A stretch of 24,000 bases of DNA from Marinobacter nauticus (GTDB lineage: Bacteria > Pseudomonadota > Gammaproteobacteria > Enterobacterales > Shewanellaceae). The position numbers were made by a program, and so were the translations under genes. This document shows, piece after piece, positions 3,672-16,160 of this stretch (position 1 is the stretch's first letter; each line of letters starts with the position of its first letter). The DNA lies in assembly GCA_019801015.1 (NCBI GenBank), contig JAHVJZ010000010.1:74872-98871 (forward strand). The letters are read 5' to 3'. The notes under the pieces were generated by a model. It was not told where the DNA came from. It saw only the letters and a program-made list of their open reading frames with translations, and searched no databases.

Positions 3672-3783
3672 TGCTCCTCCTTGAGCTCGCGATATTGCGT
3701 GGCAAACGATCTACTGCTTTTTATCTGAGCATTTCTAAGGCAGACAGGTAATGATCTAACGCAAGGTTTTAAGAGGCATCAAT

Positions 3784-3820
3784 GTGTGGAGGTCAGGCTT
3801 GATAGGGAAGGTGTGGGGGT
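3784..3820 (+). repeat. Paired direct decamers GTGTGGAGGT (3784-3793) and GTGTGGGGGT (3811-3820), 27 bp start-to-start, at the island/yajD junction
   Basis: Read directly from the sequence. The same arrangement with the same spacing recurs at 5372-5408. Confidence 0.6.
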
Positions 3821-4020
3821 ATGACCACAACCACGAAAACAACCCATCTGACGGATCCAACTGGGAGTTGCTGTGCCTGTTCTGTCATGACAACGAACAT
3901 GAGAAATACACTCAGGCTGCGCAATATGGCAGTACCGTGCAGGCAGGGGAAGACCTGAAGCGCGATGTGGCTACCCACAACCCCTTTGCTGATCTTAAGG
4001 CGATGATGGGGAAGAAGTAG
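3811..4020 (+). pseudogene. yajD: yajD (HNH nuclease) 3' fragment, copy 1. It lacks the N-terminal Zn-ribbon and the first HNH histidine.
   Basis: The translation DHNHENNPSDGSNWELLCLFCHDNEHEKYTQAAQYGSTVQAGEDLKRDVATHNPFADLKAMMGKK matches the C-terminal ~65 aa of E. coli YajD as I remember it (..HIDHDHTNNPEDGSNWELLCLYCHDHEHSKYTEADQYGT..NPFADLKAMMNKK). Residues upstream (MWRSGLIGKVWGY) are not YajD-like. Confidence 0.8.
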
Positions 4021-4096: not shown

Positions 4097-4897
4097 TTAG
4101 TTGCAGCCGCCTTTTAGTTTTCCGTACACGTTGCCAGATTTCAAACAAGCTCCTTCACCTGGAATTATTTTTAAAGTGCCAGTGATTGTATTGTCTGTAG
4201 CGTATGTGTCAAAGTTATCAATAAGGGAAAGGTTCTTTCCCGCGTAGCCATTGATAATAAAGGACTGTTCGTTATCGGAGGACCTTATAGATCCTGACAC
4301 ATTATCCAATAGTGATATGGCGATAACATTTGCAATCAGTTTTAAGCTTCCCTCAATATGATTTTGCTGTGTGAAAGATATTTGAATTCCAACAACCTTT
4401 ACATCACCATAAATTATATTGTTTGCAATGGTGGCACTCTCGCCATTACCAGAAACTTCTAATGAGCCATTGATGGTTGAGTTATTTATGGAAACATTAG
4501 ATGTGTTTTTCAATAATATGTTGCCAATAATGTCCATTTGATTGAAGTGGGAGGCGGTAGATTCGTGTATTAAAACATTACCATAAATATCGCTGTTGAA
4601 AGAGCCTATATCTCCATTACTTATATCGATGTTTCCGTCAATGGTCGAGGCATTTGAAATGCTTATCTGTCCACCTTCTATTACACTCACATTACCAGTT
4701 AACTTGGCTCCATTTATCAACTTCAGTGTCCCACCGTCAACGATGAAATTATTCTCAAGGTATCCGCCGTCGATGGTGACTTCCTCACCAGCGCTGATGG
4801 TCAAACTACCGTTATCTTCTGAATCTGCAGATAGGTTTAGCGATATAAGTGCCTGAGAAACAAAAATAACCCACAACCACCGTTTGCGTGTAGACAT
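4097..4897 (-). CDS. Secreted repeat protein, probably beta-helix-like (bactofilin / autotransporter-passenger-like G-N-I/V repeats); function unknown
   Basis: ATG at 4897 lies 6 nt after GGAG (the track's TTG start at 4909 is less likely). There is a signal peptide, MSTRKRWLWVIFVSQALISLNLSA|DS. The body is repetitive short motifs (IDGNIDISNGDIGSF, IYGNVLIH, IIGNILLKN, INGSLEVSG, IYGDVKVVG). The gene is visibly AT-rich relative to its flanks. Confidence 0.7.
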   Translation of the reverse strand: MSTRKRWLWVIFVSQALISLNLSADSEDNGSLTISAGEEVTIDGGYLENNFIVDGGTLKLINGAKLTGNVSVIEGGQISISNASTIDGNIDISNGDIGSFNSDIYGNVLIHESTASHFNQMDIIGNILLKNTSNVSINNSTINGSLEVSGNGESATIANNIIYGDVKVVGIQISFTQQNHIEGSLKLIANVIAISLLDNVSGSIRSSDNEQSFIINGYAGKNLSLIDNFDTYATDNTITGTLKIIPGEGACLKSGNVYGKLKGGCN

Positions 4898-5371
4898 CTT
4901 AGACTCCAAATTCTCAATGCCTAAAAGGGGAGGTAAATTGTAGTTGATTATACATAGCTCTGCGTAATGAAATATGAGTTTTTCAAGTTTGATTTTTTAT
5001 TTGAAATACAAAGTTTTAGATGTTTTTAAAGAGCCGTGTCTGGTTATGCTGGCACTTAATAAAGTTAATTAATCAACGGCGTGTTCCCCCGAAACCTAAT
5101 TGTTCATCGAGTTTCATGAGCAGCAGAGCATGAAGAGCTTATCCAGGCGTAAATCGCCTCTTTTAGCGGTAAGTCGTTGAAATTATAAAAATACGGTTTC
5201 TGATGCGAAGTCGTAGTTGATAGAGGCTCCTTGTGGACGAGGTTGTTATTGATACGGGATGTTTTGGGCTCTTGGCGACATTCCGATATCGAGTCGATGC
5301 CCTGCGAGAGGGCGAACAATGTGAGGATGCCTTGAGCGGTCTTGAGAGAAGGAAATATGAGAGGAACATAT

Positions 5372-5408
5372 GTGTGGGGGTTGAGTCTGAGAGGATTAGT
5401 GTGGGGGT
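5372..5408 (+). repeat. Paired direct decamers GTGTGGGGGT (5372-5381 and 5399-5408), 27 bp start-to-start
   Basis: Read directly from the sequence. The 28 nt spanning the first decamer and the spacer match the 3783-3810 equivalent at 17/28 positions by hand alignment. Confidence 0.6.
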
Positions 5409-5608
5409 ACGACCACAACCACGAAAACAACCCATCTGACGGGTCAAACTGGGAGCTGTTGTGCTTGTTCTGCCATGACAACGAACATGAGAAGTACACT
5501 CAGGCGGCGCAATACGGCAGTACCGTGCAGGCAGGGGAAGATCTGAAGCGTGATACGGCCACCCACAACCCCTTTGCCGACCTCAAGGCAATGATGGCCA
5601 AGAAGTGA
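5399..5608 (+). pseudogene. yajD: yajD (HNH nuclease) 3' fragment, copy 2, truncated at the same point as copy 1
   Basis: The translation DHNHENNPSDGSNWELLCLFCHDNEHEKYTQAAQYGSTVQAGEDLKRDTATHNPFADLKAMMAKK differs from copy 1 at 2 residues. Hand alignment gives ~24 nucleotide differences over 210 nt, mostly synonymous third positions. Confidence 0.8.
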
Positions 5609-10340: not shown

Positions 10341-13300
10341 TTAGTCTATCAGCACCTGCTCGGTCAATCTGTCAGGTAAGATGGCGACATAGCCTTGCGA
10401 TGCATACATGTTTCCTTCATCGATTCTAAAAACCGCCAACTTCTTATCTCTGGCATTGTACAGCATCTTTTGACTCGTACTGGTGAACTCCCATGTCTCG
10501 CCAAAAGCGGCGCGGTCATGGATAAACTTAACGAGCGGAGTGTTTTCCGGATCAAGTCTTATCAGCACATCAATAGGGCCCCATTTGCTGAGATTTTCGA
10601 CATCAGCGTCATTTTCTTTATTGTGTTTTTTCCATACGTTGGCCCCACTATTGAATATGTTGGTGTTTGGTACGAGGCTATAGTACTCGCCATCGCTACC
10701 TTTCAATAATGGACCGTTGTCGAGAGTGGCGTTCCTGAAATAAAGTAGGGGTGATATAACTTCAAAAGTTAAATCTTCGCTCAAACTGATATAGTTCAAG
10801 TTCTGCTTTGACGTACCATTATCGGTAGAGGATAGTGCTCTTGTTATATTGCTCACCTCTGCTGTCCGTATCACGTAACGTTTTAGTTGACGATTTTTGT
10901 CCATATATATCATCACTCTCTCTTCCGAGATTTCAGTAAAACTGACTACGGTATTAAAGTCTTCCGGGAGCGTAATTTTTTCGTATCCGTTGGTTCGGAG
11001 TCGGTAATAGTTGCCTGAAACCGACACACCAATAGGGAAAAATGTAGCAGAATAGTATCCGGCATTGGTGACATTGATGATTGTATCGTCTTCTGGAGTT
11101 GCGTACTTAATGAGTTCGTCTCCTTCTGCGCGGTAAACTTCACCATTATTCTTTAGGATCATGGTGTATCGGGTATAGCGTGGCGTAGAAGGACCCGTTG
11201 TGAGCTTTACGTCTTCCATCCACAGCCTGGGCATTTTCCAACTGCCGCTAAATCCCCCAAGCCCGTGTTCGCCAAAGCCAATTCCCCATAACTTATTGTC
11301 TTTGGTTAAAAGGCCGCTCAAGCCCTTGTAGGCAGTTATTGCTATTGCACGAACATTCTGTGGCAAACAAGCGAGTGACGGATTGGCCTCGACATCAGAG
11401 ACAAGTTCCGAATAGCTATAAGTGCCCTCTTTTAGCTTGTTCAGGTAACTCATGCTTATGGAGGGATCAAACCTGTTGCAGCCTTCACCAATATAATAGT
11501 AAGGCATCACATCGTCACTCAGTGTTGTTTGCATTTGGCCATTGGCATCAAAAAAGCCAACTTCACTTCGATTTGGATGGATTAAAAATGGCGTTGAGCC
11601 AAAGAATAATATTCTTCCATCCTTGGTGAATACCCATTGATATGGATAAGACTGTTGGTTAGGCACTGCGTGGGTGATAATGGGAGCGTTTGACTTTGTG
11701 TCCATAAAGCCGACAAAAGTGTTTGCGACCGAATTTACTGATGGCAGAGAGTCGGAGGCATAGTCTGCTGCAGGAATGCTTTTCTGGGTGTACGGTTTTC
11801 CATCCGCATCCGTCCACATCTCTCCGGTGTTAGGGTTTATAAAGATGGTGTTACTGACAGGTTGTCCCGTTACCGCATCGACTTGTGTGATGCTATAACC
11901 GTCCTTTGTACGCACTGGCATTCCGTTGGTATCCAGTTGCAGGGCGATGTCATTGCCATTCCCGGAGGTTAGGACTGCGCCATATGCGTCCACCACATCA
12001 TTGTCTTCGTTGACGATGAGCCCTGGCTTTACGAGTGCTGGGTCACCGGAGGCATCGGTCACCGGGTTTCCATTGCTGTCGGTTTGCACCACCTTCACTG
12101 CGCCGGTGGGATTGCCCTGGTTGTCTACCACCTCCAGCAGCAAATTGCCGTTGATGTCCCGGTCAATGCCGGTTTCGCTGCTGTCGATGGGTCGCAGTTC
12201 ATAGCCTTCAGGACCGAGGGTAATGGCGTCACCGGACGCATCAGTCAACCGGTCGCCGACAAGAAAATCCGGCGCGGTGCTGACAGAGGCAGTACCATTC
12301 TCACCCATCGACACGGTGGCGCCGTTGGCGGAGACCAAGTCACCAAAGCGGTCATAAACGTCGACCACCAGATTGCCGCTGGCGTCAGTAACCAATTCCC
12401 CCTCGTTGGTGTAGGTGGGCCTGAACTGCTGATTGCTGTCGTTGGTGACCAGATCGCCATTGCCATCAATCAGGTAGCCGTCTTCATTAACCAGCACGTC
12501 CGGCAGCGGGTTCAGGGTGGCATTGCCGTTTTCGTCCACCACCAATTCGCCTTTGTCGCCGGTTGCTGCGCCGGTGTCCGGGTCAATCACATCAACAATC
12601 AGGTTGCCGTCCGGGGAGGTAACCAGATCGCCATTGTCATCAGTAACGGCTTCCACTTCCTGCTGCTCGCCACCCACTGACACTTCCAGATTGTCGCCGT
12701 TGCTGTCGGTGATCGGCTGACCCGGCTCGATGATGAGATCCGGGGCGGTGCCGATGGTCACGGAGCCATCGTTACCCATGGTGGCGGTGGCGCCGTTGGC
12801 GGTAACCAGTTCGTCGTTGGCATTGTAAACGTCCAGTATCGGATTGCCATCGGCGTCAGTGATCAGCTCGCCGCTGTCGTTGTAGGTGGGTTTGAACTTC
12901 TGGCCCTGATCGTTGGTGACCAGATCGCCGTTGCCATCAATCAGGTAGCCATCGTCGTTAATCAACACCGCTGGCAGCGGCTCCAGAGTGGCGTTGCCGT
13001 TTTCATCCACCACCAGCTCACCCTTGTCACCAGTGGCTTCACCGGTGTCCGGGTCAATCACATCCACAATCGGATTGCCGTCCGGCGAGGAAATCAGATC
13101 GCCATTGTCATCAGTAACGGCTTCCACTTCCTGCTGCTCGCCATCCACCGTCACTTCCAGGTTGTCGCCGTTGCCGTCGGTAATTGGCTGACCGGGCTCG
13201 ATGATGAATCCCGGGGCGGTGCCGATGCTCACGGAGCCGTCGTTACCCATGGTGGCGGTGGCGCCATTGGCGGTAACCAGGTCGTCGTTGGCGCTGTACA

Positions 13301-15161
13301 CGTCCAGTACCGGATTGCCATCGGCGTCGGTGATCAGTTCGCCGTTGTCGTTGTAGGTGGGTTTGAACTTCTGGCCCTGATCGTTGGTGACCAGATCACC
13401 GTTGCCATCAACCAGGTAGCCTTCGTCATTGACCAGCACATCCGGCAGCGGGTTCAGGGTGGCGTTGCCGTTTTTATCGAACACCAGTTCGCCTTTGTCG
13501 CCGGTAGTTTCGCCGGTGTTCGGGTCAATCACATCGACAATCAGGTTACCGTCCGGAGAGTGGACAAAGTTTCCGTTTTCATCGGTGACCGGCACCACTT
13601 CATGCGCTTCACCATCCACGTCGACCCTTATGGCGTCGCCTTCAAGGTCTGTGATTGGGTGCTCTGGGAGCGCGATTGAACCGGGCTTTCGGCCGCTTAA
13701 GGTCCCTTCGGATTGGTTGTAGGAATCGGCTCTAGCCTCAGACAGGGTGCCATCCCGGTGGTAGGTGTCGACGATCACATTGCCCTGTTGGTCAAAGAGA
13801 ACGCTGCCATCCTCATTGCGGGACGGTTTAATCCATAAGCCGTCGCTGGTGCTGAAGCGGCTGCCTTCCGGACTCACCAGATAGCCCTGGCTATCCACAA
13901 TCAGCCCGGGTTCCTTGAGGATCGGGCTGCCGTCCGGATGGGCCATTGGTTTGCCGTTGTCATCGGTTTTCACCACCAGCAGTTCGCCGGTGGGATTGCC
14001 GCTGTGGTCGACAACCTCCAGCAGAACATCGCCATTGATGTCTGTGGTGATGCCGGCAGCATGATTCATCGGGCGTAACTGGTAACCGTCCGGCCCATAG
14101 GTGATGGGGTTGCCGGAGAGATCAGTAAGCCGGTCGCCTAGCAGAAGTCCGGGGGCGGGTTTAACGCTGGCAACGCCACTGTCATCCACCGCCACGGTCG
14201 CGCCGTTTTCGCTGACCAGATCACCGTTGGGGGAATACACATCCACGACGACGTTGCCATTGGTGTCGGTGACCAGTTCACCACTGTCGGTATAAGTGGG
14301 CTTGAAGCTTTGGTTTTGATCGTTGGTGACCAGATTGCCATCGCGATCAACCAGGTAGCCCTGATCATTCACCAGAACCGGCGGCAGGGGGCCGATGGTG
14401 GGGTTGTTGTCTTCATCAATGGTGAGCTCACCTTTGTCGCCACTGGGCTTGCCGGTGTCCGGATCGATAAGGTCGACCACGAGGTTGCCATCCGGAGAGG
14501 TCACCAGTGCGCCACTTTCATCGACAATTGGTCTCAGGGCCCATTGCTCGCCTCCGTCATCCACCAAAACCGGATTGCCATCAAGGTCGGTGAGGGAGTG
14601 GCCAGGCACCACCAGAACATCCGGGCCATTGCCCGTCAGCTCAGCGCTCTCTGTGTCCAGAGTGTTGGCTTTATTAGCGACCAGAGTGCCGTCGGTGGTA
14701 TGGGTATCGACAACGACGTTGCCTTTGCTGTCAAAGAGGATATTACCGTCGTTGTCCCTGGAAGGTTTGAGCAGCAGTCCACCGGTGGTGAGAATACGAT
14801 TTCCCTCGGTATCAACGAGGTAACCCTCATTGTCGATAATGGGATGGGAGGCCGGGAAGAAAGTCACTTCTCCGGCACTGTTCCGAATCGGTACGTTATC
14901 ACTATCCACCTCGATAAAGACGACTTCTCCAGACTCGGTGAGCTTAACCAGAATCCGGCCGTACTCATCCCGAATCAGATTTTGATTTTCAGAAAGTACC
15001 GCCTCGAAAGGGTAGAGATCGAAAGGTAGCGCTATTTTGCTTTCTTTTGAGGTTTGGTCATAGACATCGATCCCATCGCTGTTACAACCTGAAACGCCTG
15101 TCACGATAAACGCAGCAGCAATCAAATTTAATCTAAACGTCTTCATATTTATTAGTGCCAA
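10341..15161 (-). CDS. Giant surface lipoprotein (about 1600 aa) with Asp/Gly/Asn-rich tandem modules and a distinct C-terminal domain; putative adhesin or Ca-binding repeat protein
   Basis: Single uninterrupted ORF. Lipoprotein signal: MKTFRLNLIAAAFIVTGVSG|C. The start is either TTG at 15161 (GGGGA ~9 nt upstream) or ATG at 15146. Motifs of the type D-x-D/N-G-N-x-(I/V)-V-D and GYL(V/I)D recur, and GDKGEL recurs at residues 242, 555, 712 and 869. The last ~500 aa are non-repetitive. Confidence 0.9.
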   Translation of the reverse strand: MALINMKTFRLNLIAAAFIVTGVSGCNSDGIDVYDQTSKESKIALPFDLYPFEAVLSENQNLIRDEYGRILVKLTESGEVVFIEVDSDNVPIRNSAGEVTFFPASHPIIDNEGYLVDTEGNRILTTGGLLLKPSRDNDGNILFDSKGNVVVDTHTTDGTLVANKANTLDTESAELTGNGPDVLVVPGHSLTDLDGNPVLVDDGGEQWALRPIVDESGALVTSPDGNLVVDLIDPDTGKPSGDKGELTIDEDNNPTIGPLPPVLVNDQGYLVDRDGNLVTNDQNQSFKPTYTDSGELVTDTNGNVVVDVYSPNGDLVSENGATVAVDDSGVASVKPAPGLLLGDRLTDLSGNPITYGPDGYQLRPMNHAAGITTDINGDVLLEVVDHSGNPTGELLVVKTDDNGKPMAHPDGSPILKEPGLIVDSQGYLVSPEGSRFSTSDGLWIKPSRNEDGSVLFDQQGNVIVDTYHRDGTLSEARADSYNQSEGTLSGRKPGSIALPEHPITDLEGDAIRVDVDGEAHEVVPVTDENGNFVHSPDGNLIVDVIDPNTGETTGDKGELVFDKNGNATLNPLPDVLVNDEGYLVDGNGDLVTNDQGQKFKPTYNDNGELITDADGNPVLDVYSANDDLVTANGATATMGNDGSVSIGTAPGFIIEPGQPITDGNGDNLEVTVDGEQQEVEAVTDDNGDLISSPDGNPIVDVIDPDTGEATGDKGELVVDENGNATLEPLPAVLINDDGYLIDGNGDLVTNDQGQKFKPTYNDSGELITDADGNPILDVYNANDELVTANGATATMGNDGSVTIGTAPDLIIEPGQPITDSNGDNLEVSVGGEQQEVEAVTDDNGDLVTSPDGNLIVDVIDPDTGAATGDKGELVVDENGNATLNPLPDVLVNEDGYLIDGNGDLVTNDSNQQFRPTYTNEGELVTDASGNLVVDVYDRFGDLVSANGATVSMGENGTASVSTAPDFLVGDRLTDASGDAITLGPEGYELRPIDSSETGIDRDINGNLLLEVVDNQGNPTGAVKVVQTDSNGNPVTDASGDPALVKPGLIVNEDNDVVDAYGAVLTSGNGNDIALQLDTNGMPVRTKDGYSITQVDAVTGQPVSNTIFINPNTGEMWTDADGKPYTQKSIPAADYASDSLPSVNSVANTFVGFMDTKSNAPIITHAVPNQQSYPYQWVFTKDGRILFFGSTPFLIHPNRSEVGFFDANGQMQTTLSDDVMPYYYIGEGCNRFDPSISMSYLNKLKEGTYSYSELVSDVEANPSLACLPQNVRAIAITAYKGLSGLLTKDNKLWGIGFGEHGLGGFSGSWKMPRLWMEDVKLTTGPSTPRYTRYTMILKNNGEVYRAEGDELIKYATPEDDTIINVTNAGYYSATFFPIGVSVSGNYYRLRTNGYEKITLPEDFNTVVSFTEISEERVMIYMDKNRQLKRYVIRTAEVSNITRALSSTDNGTSKQNLNYISLSEDLTFEVISPLLYFRNATLDNGPLLKGSDGEYYSLVPNTNIFNSGANVWKKHNKENDADVENLSKWGPIDVLIRLDPENTPLVKFIHDRAAFGETWEFTSTSQKMLYNARDKKLAVFRIDEGNMYASQGYVAILPDRLTEQVLID
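12267..13679 (-). repeat. Three tandem in-frame 471-bp (157-aa) coding repeats inside the giant lipoprotein gene; a more diverged copy lies at ~14145-14615
   Basis: The GDKGEL anchors are exactly 157 aa apart. The antisense shadow ORFs at 12517, 12988 and ~13462 are near-identical (MALPFSSTT.SPLSPVA.PVSGSITSTI.LPSGE...) with a 471-nt offset. Confidence 0.85.
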
Positions 15162-15853: not shown

Positions 15854-15945
15854 TGGTAGGGGCGGTGGGATTCGAACCCACAACCTGCCGCTTATCTGGC
15901 GCCACGGAGTATAAACCCGCTGCTCTACCATTGAGCTACGCCCCC
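15854..15945 (-). tRNA. Atypical 92-nt tRNA-like gene with encoded CCA, a canonical acceptor/D/T core, and two consecutive anticodon-arm-like hairpins (loops UUUAUAC and CAGAUAA)
   Basis: Minus-strand read: GGGGGCG UA GCUC AAUGGUA GAGC A GCGGG UUUAUAC UCCGU GGCGC CAGAUAA GCGGC AGGUU GUGGG UUCGAAU CCCAC CGCCCCU A CCA. The acceptor has 7 bp (G1-U72 wobble), the D-loop has GG, and the T-loop is UUCGAAU. See findings for the ambiguity. Confidence 0.6.
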
Positions 15946-16160
15946 AGCAAACCCAAGGTTTACCGGGGTATTCGAAAATGGATGCTGGTGCAGCGGACTC
16001 GCGTCATAAGGAGAATCGTTGCCTGGCAATGCGACAGTGATGACAACATCATAAGCCCGCTGCCGGGGTTATCGTGCGAGGTGGTGTGAAATGGGGGCGG
16101 TTTGGTCACAGGCAACAGCGGGCTGCCGATGCACCGGCGGCTAGGGGCGAACCTCCACAC

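Follow-up and report, generated by a model that had tools for sequence, protein, structure and literature searches.

A tRNA(UAU) gene of Marinobacter nauticus with a second anticodon-like arm carrying a conserved GAU loop

The tRNA gene and its chromosomal surroundings

The window analysed here is a 24,000-nt stretch of the Marinobacter nauticus genome, in which ARAGORN predicted a single tRNA gene, a tRNA-Ile(tat) of 92 nt located at positions 15854–15945 of the minus strand, with the anticodon UAU, the discriminator base A73, and an encoded CCA. The gene matches the Rfam model RF00005 over its full length (model positions 1–71 of 71) with 63.9 bits (gathering threshold 29, E-value 5.7e-12), and the alignment assigns an 18-nt insertion to the variable region. 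The acceptor stem is GGGGGCG/CGCCCCU with a G1-U72 pair, and the D-arm, GCUC-AAUGGUA-GAGC, is followed by A26. The features of a canonical tRNA are all present, including a 7-bp acceptor stem, a 5-bp T stem, U8, A14, G18G19, a T-loop of the type GTTCRA, and an R15-Y48 pair. A previous interpretation made without database searches, referred to below as the sequence-only reading, had described the acceptor, D-arm, T-arm, discriminator, and CCA as canonical and counted 39 nt between A26 and the T-arm; both statements are borne out by the sequence and the RF00005 match.

These 39 nt comprise two hairpins and a short spacer, all on the minus strand. The anticodon arm, hairpin 1 (15904–15920, GCGGG-UUUAUAC-UCCGU), has the UAU anticodon at 15911–15913, U33, A37, and two G-U pairs. 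It is followed by a variable region of 22 nt that holds hairpin 2, the extra arm (15886–15903), with a stem of 4–5 bp, a bulged G, and the 7-nt loop CAGAUAA, in which GAU occupies 15894–15896. The 3' spacer GGUU (15882–15885) ends with position 48, as indicated by covariation of the Levitt pair 15-48, and the T-arm GUGGG-UUCGAAU-CCCAC (15865–15881) is assigned on the basis of sequence, Rfam match, and covariation. According to covariation among 68 relatives, the hairpin-2 stem consists of C47-G55, G46-C56, C45-G57, a bulged G58, and G44-C59. The GAU centre of this hairpin and the A at its position '33' had been recognised correctly in the sequence-only reading, but the G-G mismatch proposed there is replaced by the bulged G58, which is at least 90% conserved in the 68 relatives. 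With this detail and the strand corrected, the earlier account of the structure holds. Of the two interpretations offered at that time, the first, in which the molecule is a tRNA(UAU) whose odd extra arm is 22 nt long, is the one in line with ARAGORN and Rfam, and hairpin 1 has the U33 and the purine at position 37. Single-sequence folding of the window tRNA alone gave an MFE z-score of -1.28, which is not significant and is taken to be unremarkable for a tRNA. The observation itself is confirmed: the window gene is a real AUA-type tRNA with a second anticodon-like arm.

The gene lies at the border between genus-conserved DNA, above position 16000, and strain-specific DNA, below position 15854. 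The conserved part, to the right of the tRNA, comprises an unknown ORF, TetR, LysR, enoyl-CoA hydratase, NhaA, and a FemAB-like gene, while a 1606-aa repeat protein, a LuxR-type regulator, an AT-rich segment, and, 12 kb away, an integrase-like gene are located to the left. Comparison with relatives, proposed by the sequence-only reading as a comparison of orthologous loci, showed that 17 of 18 congeners do not have tRNA(UAU), and that the remaining one, G018 (95% identity), carries it elsewhere, at a housekeeping locus where it is flanked by a PAS-GGDEF-EAL gene on one side and an HI0933-like/gpsA/secB block on the other. A common locus in the host and G018 was considered and rejected, as the equivalent host site holds an unrelated low-GC island without the tRNA. 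This 12.9-kb island (locus L049, host C5:452663-465519, 37–52% GC), placed exactly at the G018 tRNA intergenic site, contains ORFs of 476, 505, and 715 aa on one strand together with AUA-rich genes, and no sequence similarity between it and the window was found. The possibility that the tRNA serves as an island attachment site was likewise discarded, as no repeat of the tRNA 3' end is present in the window. Nor does the tRNA represent an ancestral attB of the genus, given that 17 of 18 congeners lack it.

The host, G018, Microbulbifer, and a Cellvibrio MAG have in common only the tRNA and about 33 nt upstream of it, including the box TTTCGAATACCCC (15966–15978, minus strand), located about 21–33 nt 5' of the mature end. 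A scan upstream of the tRNA revealed no consensus sigma-70 promoter, and the box itself has no sigma-70 match; TTTCGAATACCCC is a possible promoter or leader element. The tRNA together with this box looks like a small horizontally moving tRNA cassette. Horizontal acquisition would fit the patchy distribution among congeners, the differing loci, and the relatives in phages and plasmids, and the same pattern suits the earlier guess that the gene is a horizontally acquired AUA decoder.

Two other features were noted in the strain-specific part of the window. For the ORF encoding the 1606-aa protein (10341–15161, minus strand), neither Pfam nor NCBIfam gave a match; tandem repeats of about 471 nt are found within it. 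A paralogous stretch, 87–92% identical, is present at C1:918923-923026, and the AT-rich 3' part of the ORF is unique, an organisation reminiscent of repeat-rich surface proteins whose C-terminus varies. The AT-rich segment is flanked by 237-nt direct repeats, 86% identical, at positions 3782–4018 and 5370–5606. A further copy of this repeat, of about 200 nt, is located at host C10:69561-69758, and copies with 75–83% identity occur in most congeners; the repeat-flanked segment may be a small mobile or repeated element.

A family of two-hairpin tRNAs with a conserved GAU loop

The same 92–93-nt molecule with two hairpins was encountered in well over 100 independent contigs, which places the feature far beyond chance. 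Relatives were found in at least 50 species-representative genomes (including Xanthomonas, Pseudoxanthomonas, Stenotrophomonas, Lysobacter, Microbulbifer, a Cellvibrio MAG, and MAGs of several phyla), in at least 120 metagenome loci, and in 30–35 IMG/VR contigs, mostly within phage tRNA arrays. They also occur on Xanthomonas plasmids such as pXCV183, on Alteromonas megaplasmids, and in a group of Vibrio phages, where the gene is annotated as tRNA-Ile. Among the matches listed, the nearest copies are those of Microbulbifer species and the Cellvibrio MAG, with 4–6 differences. All members are homologues, so that counts across the family are not independent events, and the link between UAU and GAU is the trait of one lineage and not the product of repeated independent evolution. 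The architecture has gone unremarked because annotation pipelines call such genes simply tRNA-Ile or miss them.

An alignment of 68 distinct sequences was scored on a five-helix structure. Pairing was found in 95.5% of cells, and both-side changes were observed at 18 of 26 pairs, those of the extra-arm stem included, so that all five helices, the extra arm among them, show compensatory changes. None of 500 shuffles reached the observed pairing and covariation values, and slid controls gave only 38–53% pairing. In the test for canonical tRNA features, which covers the acceptor and T stems, the helices were 99–100% paired. Covariation extends to the three inner pairs of the extra arm, whose closing pair is C-G in 54 sequences, A-U in 9, U-A in 3, and G-C in 2. 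The Levitt pair 15-48 covaries throughout (A-U in 44 and G-C in 24 of the 68), while A73 is found in 67 of 68. The U12-A23 pair is present in 68 of 68, with A23 fixed for most of them by the word TAGAGC used in the scans that retrieved most members. The hairpin-1 stem GCGG/CCGU and the G27-U43 pair are nearly invariant, although they were left free in the scans. Pair 4-69 varies freely within the family, and the window copy differs from that of G018 by a compensatory double change, G5-C68 versus A5-U68.

The first scans had CAGATAA in the search pattern, and therefore two scans avoiding this circularity were performed. In scan (a), the extra loop was fixed and the anticodon left free in viral contigs; every tRNA accepted by ARAGORN has the anticodon UAU (21 new ones and those already known), 32 matches were chance non-tRNA sequences, and one was an odd tRNA-like sequence. 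In scan (b), the constraints were limited to the anticodon arm and the 3' half of the D-arm, the variable region being left free in metagenomes; of the tRNA(UAU) loci among the matches listed, 77 have a long arm and 35 a short one. The long-arm loci listed represent 47 distinct arms, all 47 of which have G-A-U at positions 3–5 of the 7-nt loop. The flanking positions in these arms vary: '32' is C in 42, U in 4, and A in 1; '33' is A in 38, U in 5, G in 3, and C in 1; '37' is A in 43, U in 3, and C in 1; and '38' is A in 43, U in 2, C in 1, and G in 1. The inner three stem pairs occur in at least 11 combinations among the same arms. GAU being fixed while flanks and stem vary, the selected feature is the triplet and not the whole hairpin sequence; selection acts on GAU in an anticodon-loop-shaped loop. 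The loop CAGAUAA also contains AUA, the codon read by UAU, and a codon mimic, in which this AUA would mask the anticodon in cis, was considered and rejected: G34' is invariant and A37' is not, and in the variants CAGAUUA and CAGAUCG the AUA is lost with GAU intact. The extra loop is best read as an anticodon mimic and not a codon mimic.

The short-arm genes form a separate group of tRNA(UAU) with a short variable loop in the metagenome loci L170–L289 (e.g., L195, L204, and L207), with GCGG/CCGU as anticodon stem and CUUAUAA as loop; an encoded CCA is missing from many of them. Short-arm genes also occur in phages. Their existence implies that the extra arm is not obligatory for a UAU tRNA.

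The odd sequence recovered in scan (a), near positions 3776–3833 of IMG/VR contig 3300012667_000587 (L159), is a 95-nt tRNA-like sequence with two AGAUAA motifs, which ARAGORN was unable to assign (4-base 'anticodon' gaga) and which may be a rearranged family relative. In Xanthomonas, Pseudoxanthomonas, Lysobacter, and Rudaea, a conserved ORF of about 180–188 aa without a Pfam match is located downstream of the tRNA, at a distance of 350–750 nt and in the same orientation (L054:5959-6525, L076:1409-1948, and eight other loci) and is probably part of the element carrying the tRNA there. Comparison of neighbourhoods revealed no protein family common to carriers across taxa, and a dedicated partner protein for the extra arm was rejected on this basis.

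Isoleucine identity and the AUA machinery of the host

The host genome (4.2 Mb, 17 contigs) contains 101 tRNA genes according to ARAGORN. Its tmRNA tag and the closest relatives of its tRNAs point to a gammaproteobacterium. The inventory of tRNA-Ile genes and tilS suggested in the sequence-only reading was completed, and tRNA-Ile(GAU), a tRNA-Ile2-like CAU gene, and TilS are all present in the host. The tRNA-Ile(GAU) genes reside in rRNA operons and have the anticodon arm CACCC-CUGAUAA-GGGUG; the tRNA-Ile2-like CAU gene is a single one, at C9:69929-70005; and TilS is recognised by TIGR02432 (159 bits, cut-off 93.6) and TIGR02433 (41.7 bits, cut-off 20.2). The IleRS is of the bacterial type, and its C-terminal zinc-binding motif CERCW aligns with R888-C889-W890 of the Staphylococcus aureus enzyme. 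In five other carrier genomes TilS also scored above the cut-off, making six of six with the host, and the CxRCW Trp motif of IleRS was found in four of the five, the C-terminus of the fifth lying outside the resolved locus sequence. It has been reported that E. coli IleRS prefers LAU over UAU 360-fold, that Trp905 (W890 in S. aureus) is part of this discrimination, and that its replacement by Arg improves the use of UAU about 10-fold (Taniguchi et al., PMC3575796). Since the carriers keep TilS and a Trp-type IleRS, the family is an addition to the canonical system, in cells where IleRS should disfavour UAU.

AUA makes up 2.45 per 1000 codons in the host genome, or 5.5% of isoleucine codons, and is enriched in low-GC accessory genes, some of them in the window. 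Its frequency is 51.7 per 1000 codons in the ORF at 4097–4909 and 22.7 in that at 5104–5499, both in the AT-rich segment, and 10 in the large ORF (10341–15161). The earlier statement that the accessory genes are AUA-heavy thus holds for some window genes. The enrichment fits a supply role, yet it is expected from low GC alone, and as a generic composition effect it is no proof of a link to the tRNA.

The determinants of bacterial tRNA-Ile comprise A73, C4-G69, U12-A23, G16, D20/21, C29-G41, G or L at 34, A35, U36, t6A37, and A38 (PMC9976931). In the body of tRNA(UAU), A73 and U12-A23 are present, while the minor E. coli determinants C4-G69 and G16 are absent, the window copy having G4-C69 and U16. 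The two arms differ in the anticodon-branch set. The real anticodon arm has U34, C38, and G29-C41, so that three of six anticodon-branch determinants are missing, whereas the extra arm offers all six (C29-G41, G34, A35, U36, A37, and A38), its third pair from the loop being C-G in 65 of 68 sequences. Most members of the family have C or U at position 38 of the real loop, with A in about 11 of 71, and mostly U at position 32. Among the matches listed, the short-arm tRNA(UAU) genes with the same stem have the Ile-type loop CUUAUAA in 33 of 34. This contrast in the real anticodon loop between long- and short-arm genes is suggestive, though effectively a comparison of two clades.

Proposed role, alternative explanations and related systems

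The window gene is probably a functional, horizontally acquired elongator tRNA(UAU), which would be expressed and read AUA as a supplement to the host TilS/tRNA-Ile2(CAU) system. Hairpin 1 would pair through UAU with AUA on the ribosome, and the long variable arm would act as a conserved mimic of the tRNA-Ile(GAU) anticodon arm, offering G34, A35, U36, A37, A38, and C29-G41 to a bacterial IleRS that is a poor acceptor of UAU. That the tRNA is charged with isoleucine through the GAU arm as a handle for IleRS is a serious, if still tentative, possibility; both the isoleucine acceptance and the contact between the extra arm and IleRS are what we infer from the conserved positions. With some caution we propose that the two jobs could be divided between two arms, UAU decoding and a portable GAU 'identity arm' letting any ordinary bacterial IleRS charge the molecule, so that one arm would decode and the other would confer charging identity. 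In the L-shaped molecule a 5-bp variable arm falls short of the IleRS anticodon site, and an alternative docking or stacking mode is therefore needed. A geometric way out could be that either hairpin stacks under the D-arm, possibly with a switch between them: position 26, in front of hairpin 1, is normal, and hairpin 2 leads into a normal 4–5-nt variable loop ending at position 48.

tRNA identity rules assume that the anticodon-reading synthetase and the ribosome read the same loop. If charging through the GAU arm is true, the family would show that decoding and charging can be uncoupled in nature, with isoleucine identity on a second hairpin and a drifted decoding loop, and a mobile AUA decoder in hosts whose IleRS rejects UAU would be explained. 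The question bears on AUA decoding by mobile elements without lysidine, on the reading of the AUA/AUG box, and on the engineering of orthogonal or anticodon-independent tRNAs. The window contributes a stand-alone chromosomal copy in a free-living gammaproteobacterium with TilS, tRNA-Ile2(CAU), and a Trp-type IleRS; the host having its own AUA system, this gene should be dispensable and easy to delete or mutate. The comparative analysis adds an unbiased test of GAU invariance, the discrimination between codon and anticodon mimicry, and the finding that the real loop has drifted while the extra loop has kept the isoleucine consensus.

Several other explanations were weighed against charging through the GAU arm. 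An AUA-reading tRNA-Ile whose GAU loop serves a partner other than IleRS seems rather unlikely, although less so than the other rivals; IleRS would then recognise the tRNA via A73 and a modified UAU loop. The partner could be a modification enzyme, such as the t6A37 machinery with its reading of U36-A37, or a processing factor; alternatively, the arm would be a shield or decoy against toxins targeting tRNA-Ile or anticodon loops. The invariance of GAU indicates that selection is sequence-specific and leaves the identity of the partner open, members of the family are common in phage tRNA arrays, the short-arm tRNA(UAU) genes make charging without the arm seem possible, and the geometry speaks against a canonical contact with IleRS. 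However, the positions that are conserved match the anticodon-branch set published for IleRS, including A38 and the mostly C-G third pair, no conserved neighbour across taxa qualifies as a dedicated partner, and we know of no anticodon nuclease specific for GAU loops. It is improbable that the molecule is a two-state tRNA in which either hairpin can be stacked as the anticodon arm, whether for reading AUA in one state and AUC/AUU in the other, or for being charged in the GAU-stacked and decoding in the UAU-stacked form. In silico deletion of either hairpin does leave an ARAGORN-recognised tRNA-Ile (gat in 60 of 68 sequences after removal of hairpin 1, tat in 68 of 68 after removal of hairpin 2), and the normal variable loop 3' of hairpin 2 has a covarying position 48, yet the switch lacks structural backing, and the equivalent of U33 is A in 38 of the 47 distinct arms listed and U in only 5, which speaks against ribosomal decoding. 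The usual A at this position argues that the extra loop is not meant to decode. The second interpretation in the sequence-only reading, a tRNA-Ile(GAU) with an inserted hairpin, survives as a compatible cloverleaf upon deletion of hairpin 1 but not as the decoding form.

We regard as very improbable a class-II-like tRNA charged by LeuRS, which would insert leucine at AUA as low-level recoding or mistranslation, even though the long variable arm, A73, and the A15-U48 pair of the window copy would suit it and a precedent exists in the nematode nev-tRNA(UAU), which is reported to insert leucine at AUA in vitro (PMC3333845). The D-arm is of the class-I type, with a 4-bp stem and a 7-nt loop, unlike that of bacterial tRNA-Leu; G15-C48 is found in about a third of the family; the tRNA adjoins normal tRNA-Leu genes in phage arrays; and its hosts are ordinary bacteria that possess TilS and translate AUA as isoleucine. 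Moreover, to our knowledge bacterial LeuRS does not read the variable arm, so that the invariant GAU loop would stay unexplained. There is similarly little chance that the gene specifies a non-decoding tRNA-like RNA, a regulator or sponge binding IleRS or another tRNA-Ile-binding protein via the GAU arm. Anticodon-arm mimics do bind synthetases, the thrS operator being an example, and the AUA system of the host is already complete; but the molecule has a full canonical acceptor/T branch, the encoded CCA, A73, U33 and A37 of hairpin 1, and an invariant UAU, and members sit in phage tRNA arrays otherwise composed of ordinary decoders. As for a pseudogene or an integration-scarred tRNA with a strain-specific insertion, also raised in the sequence-only reading, only the position of the gene at the border of conserved and strain-specific DNA recommends it, and it is refuted by the family data. 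Compensatory changes throughout the family, including the double change relative to G018, exclude it, as do the Rfam score of 63.9 bits and a window free of any duplicated tRNA 3' end. The 'insertion' is found in all relatives.

Full-text searches of the literature retrieved no publication on a tRNA(UAU) with a GAU loop in its variable arm; the nearest described systems are class I tRNA-Ile(UAU), allo-tRNAs, and nematode nev-tRNAs. The tRNA-Ile(TAT) of M. mucogenicum is reported to be expressed (PMC6582537), which does not imply membership of the GAU-arm family. The class I tRNA-Ile(UAU), or tRNA-Ile3, is known from TilS-lacking Mycoplasma mobile, Bifidobacterium, and Neorickettsia, as well as from lactobacilli (PMC3575796; PMC8450103). 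The tRNA described here shares with it a gene-encoded UAU for AUA, A73, A37, and presumed isoleucine acceptance, but has a 22-nt variable region with a GAU loop in place of the short, 4–5-nt variable loop. The hosts of tRNA-Ile3 have lost TilS or adapted their IleRS (Arg or Lys for Trp905, or a eukaryote-type IleRS), while the carriers of the present family keep TilS and a Trp-type IleRS, with tRNA-Ile2(CAU) in the window host. The major tRNA-Ile(GAU), or tRNA-Ile1, is resembled in the extra loop (CAGAUAA versus CUGAUAA in the host), in the C29-G41-type pair, in A73, and in U12-A23; the differences are the placement of the copy in the variable-arm position, usually with A for U33 and with a bulged G in the stem, and a body without C4-G69 or G16 and with a different D-loop.

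A long paired variable arm and a 7/5 acceptor/T branch are common to this tRNA and the class II tRNAs (Leu, Ser, Tyr, and Sec), from which it is distinguished by the UAU anticodon, the class-I D-arm with its 4-bp stem and 7-nt loop, and the fixed extra-loop sequence. The loop motif AGAUAA was absent from the variable regions of Leu, Ser, and Tyr tRNAs in the same arrays, and A73 would fit Leu or Tyr but rules out an E. coli-type SerRS identity. Nematode nev-tRNA-Ile(UAU) likewise combines UAU with a long variable arm (PMC3333845, PMC4300185), but it is eukaryotic, has a tRNA-Leu-like body, and is leucylated in vitro, and the available parts of these reports mention no GAU loop. Allo-tRNAs, including allo-tRNA(UAU), are similar in having a long variable arm, often UAU, and an occurrence in both bacteria and phages (Mukai et al. 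2017, PMC5389517). They are characterised by an 8/4 or 9/3 branch, G73 or U73, a long D-stem with a tetraloop, and a serine-type identity (PMC5389517), whereas the tRNA(UAU) described here has a 7/5 branch, A73, and a normal D-arm.
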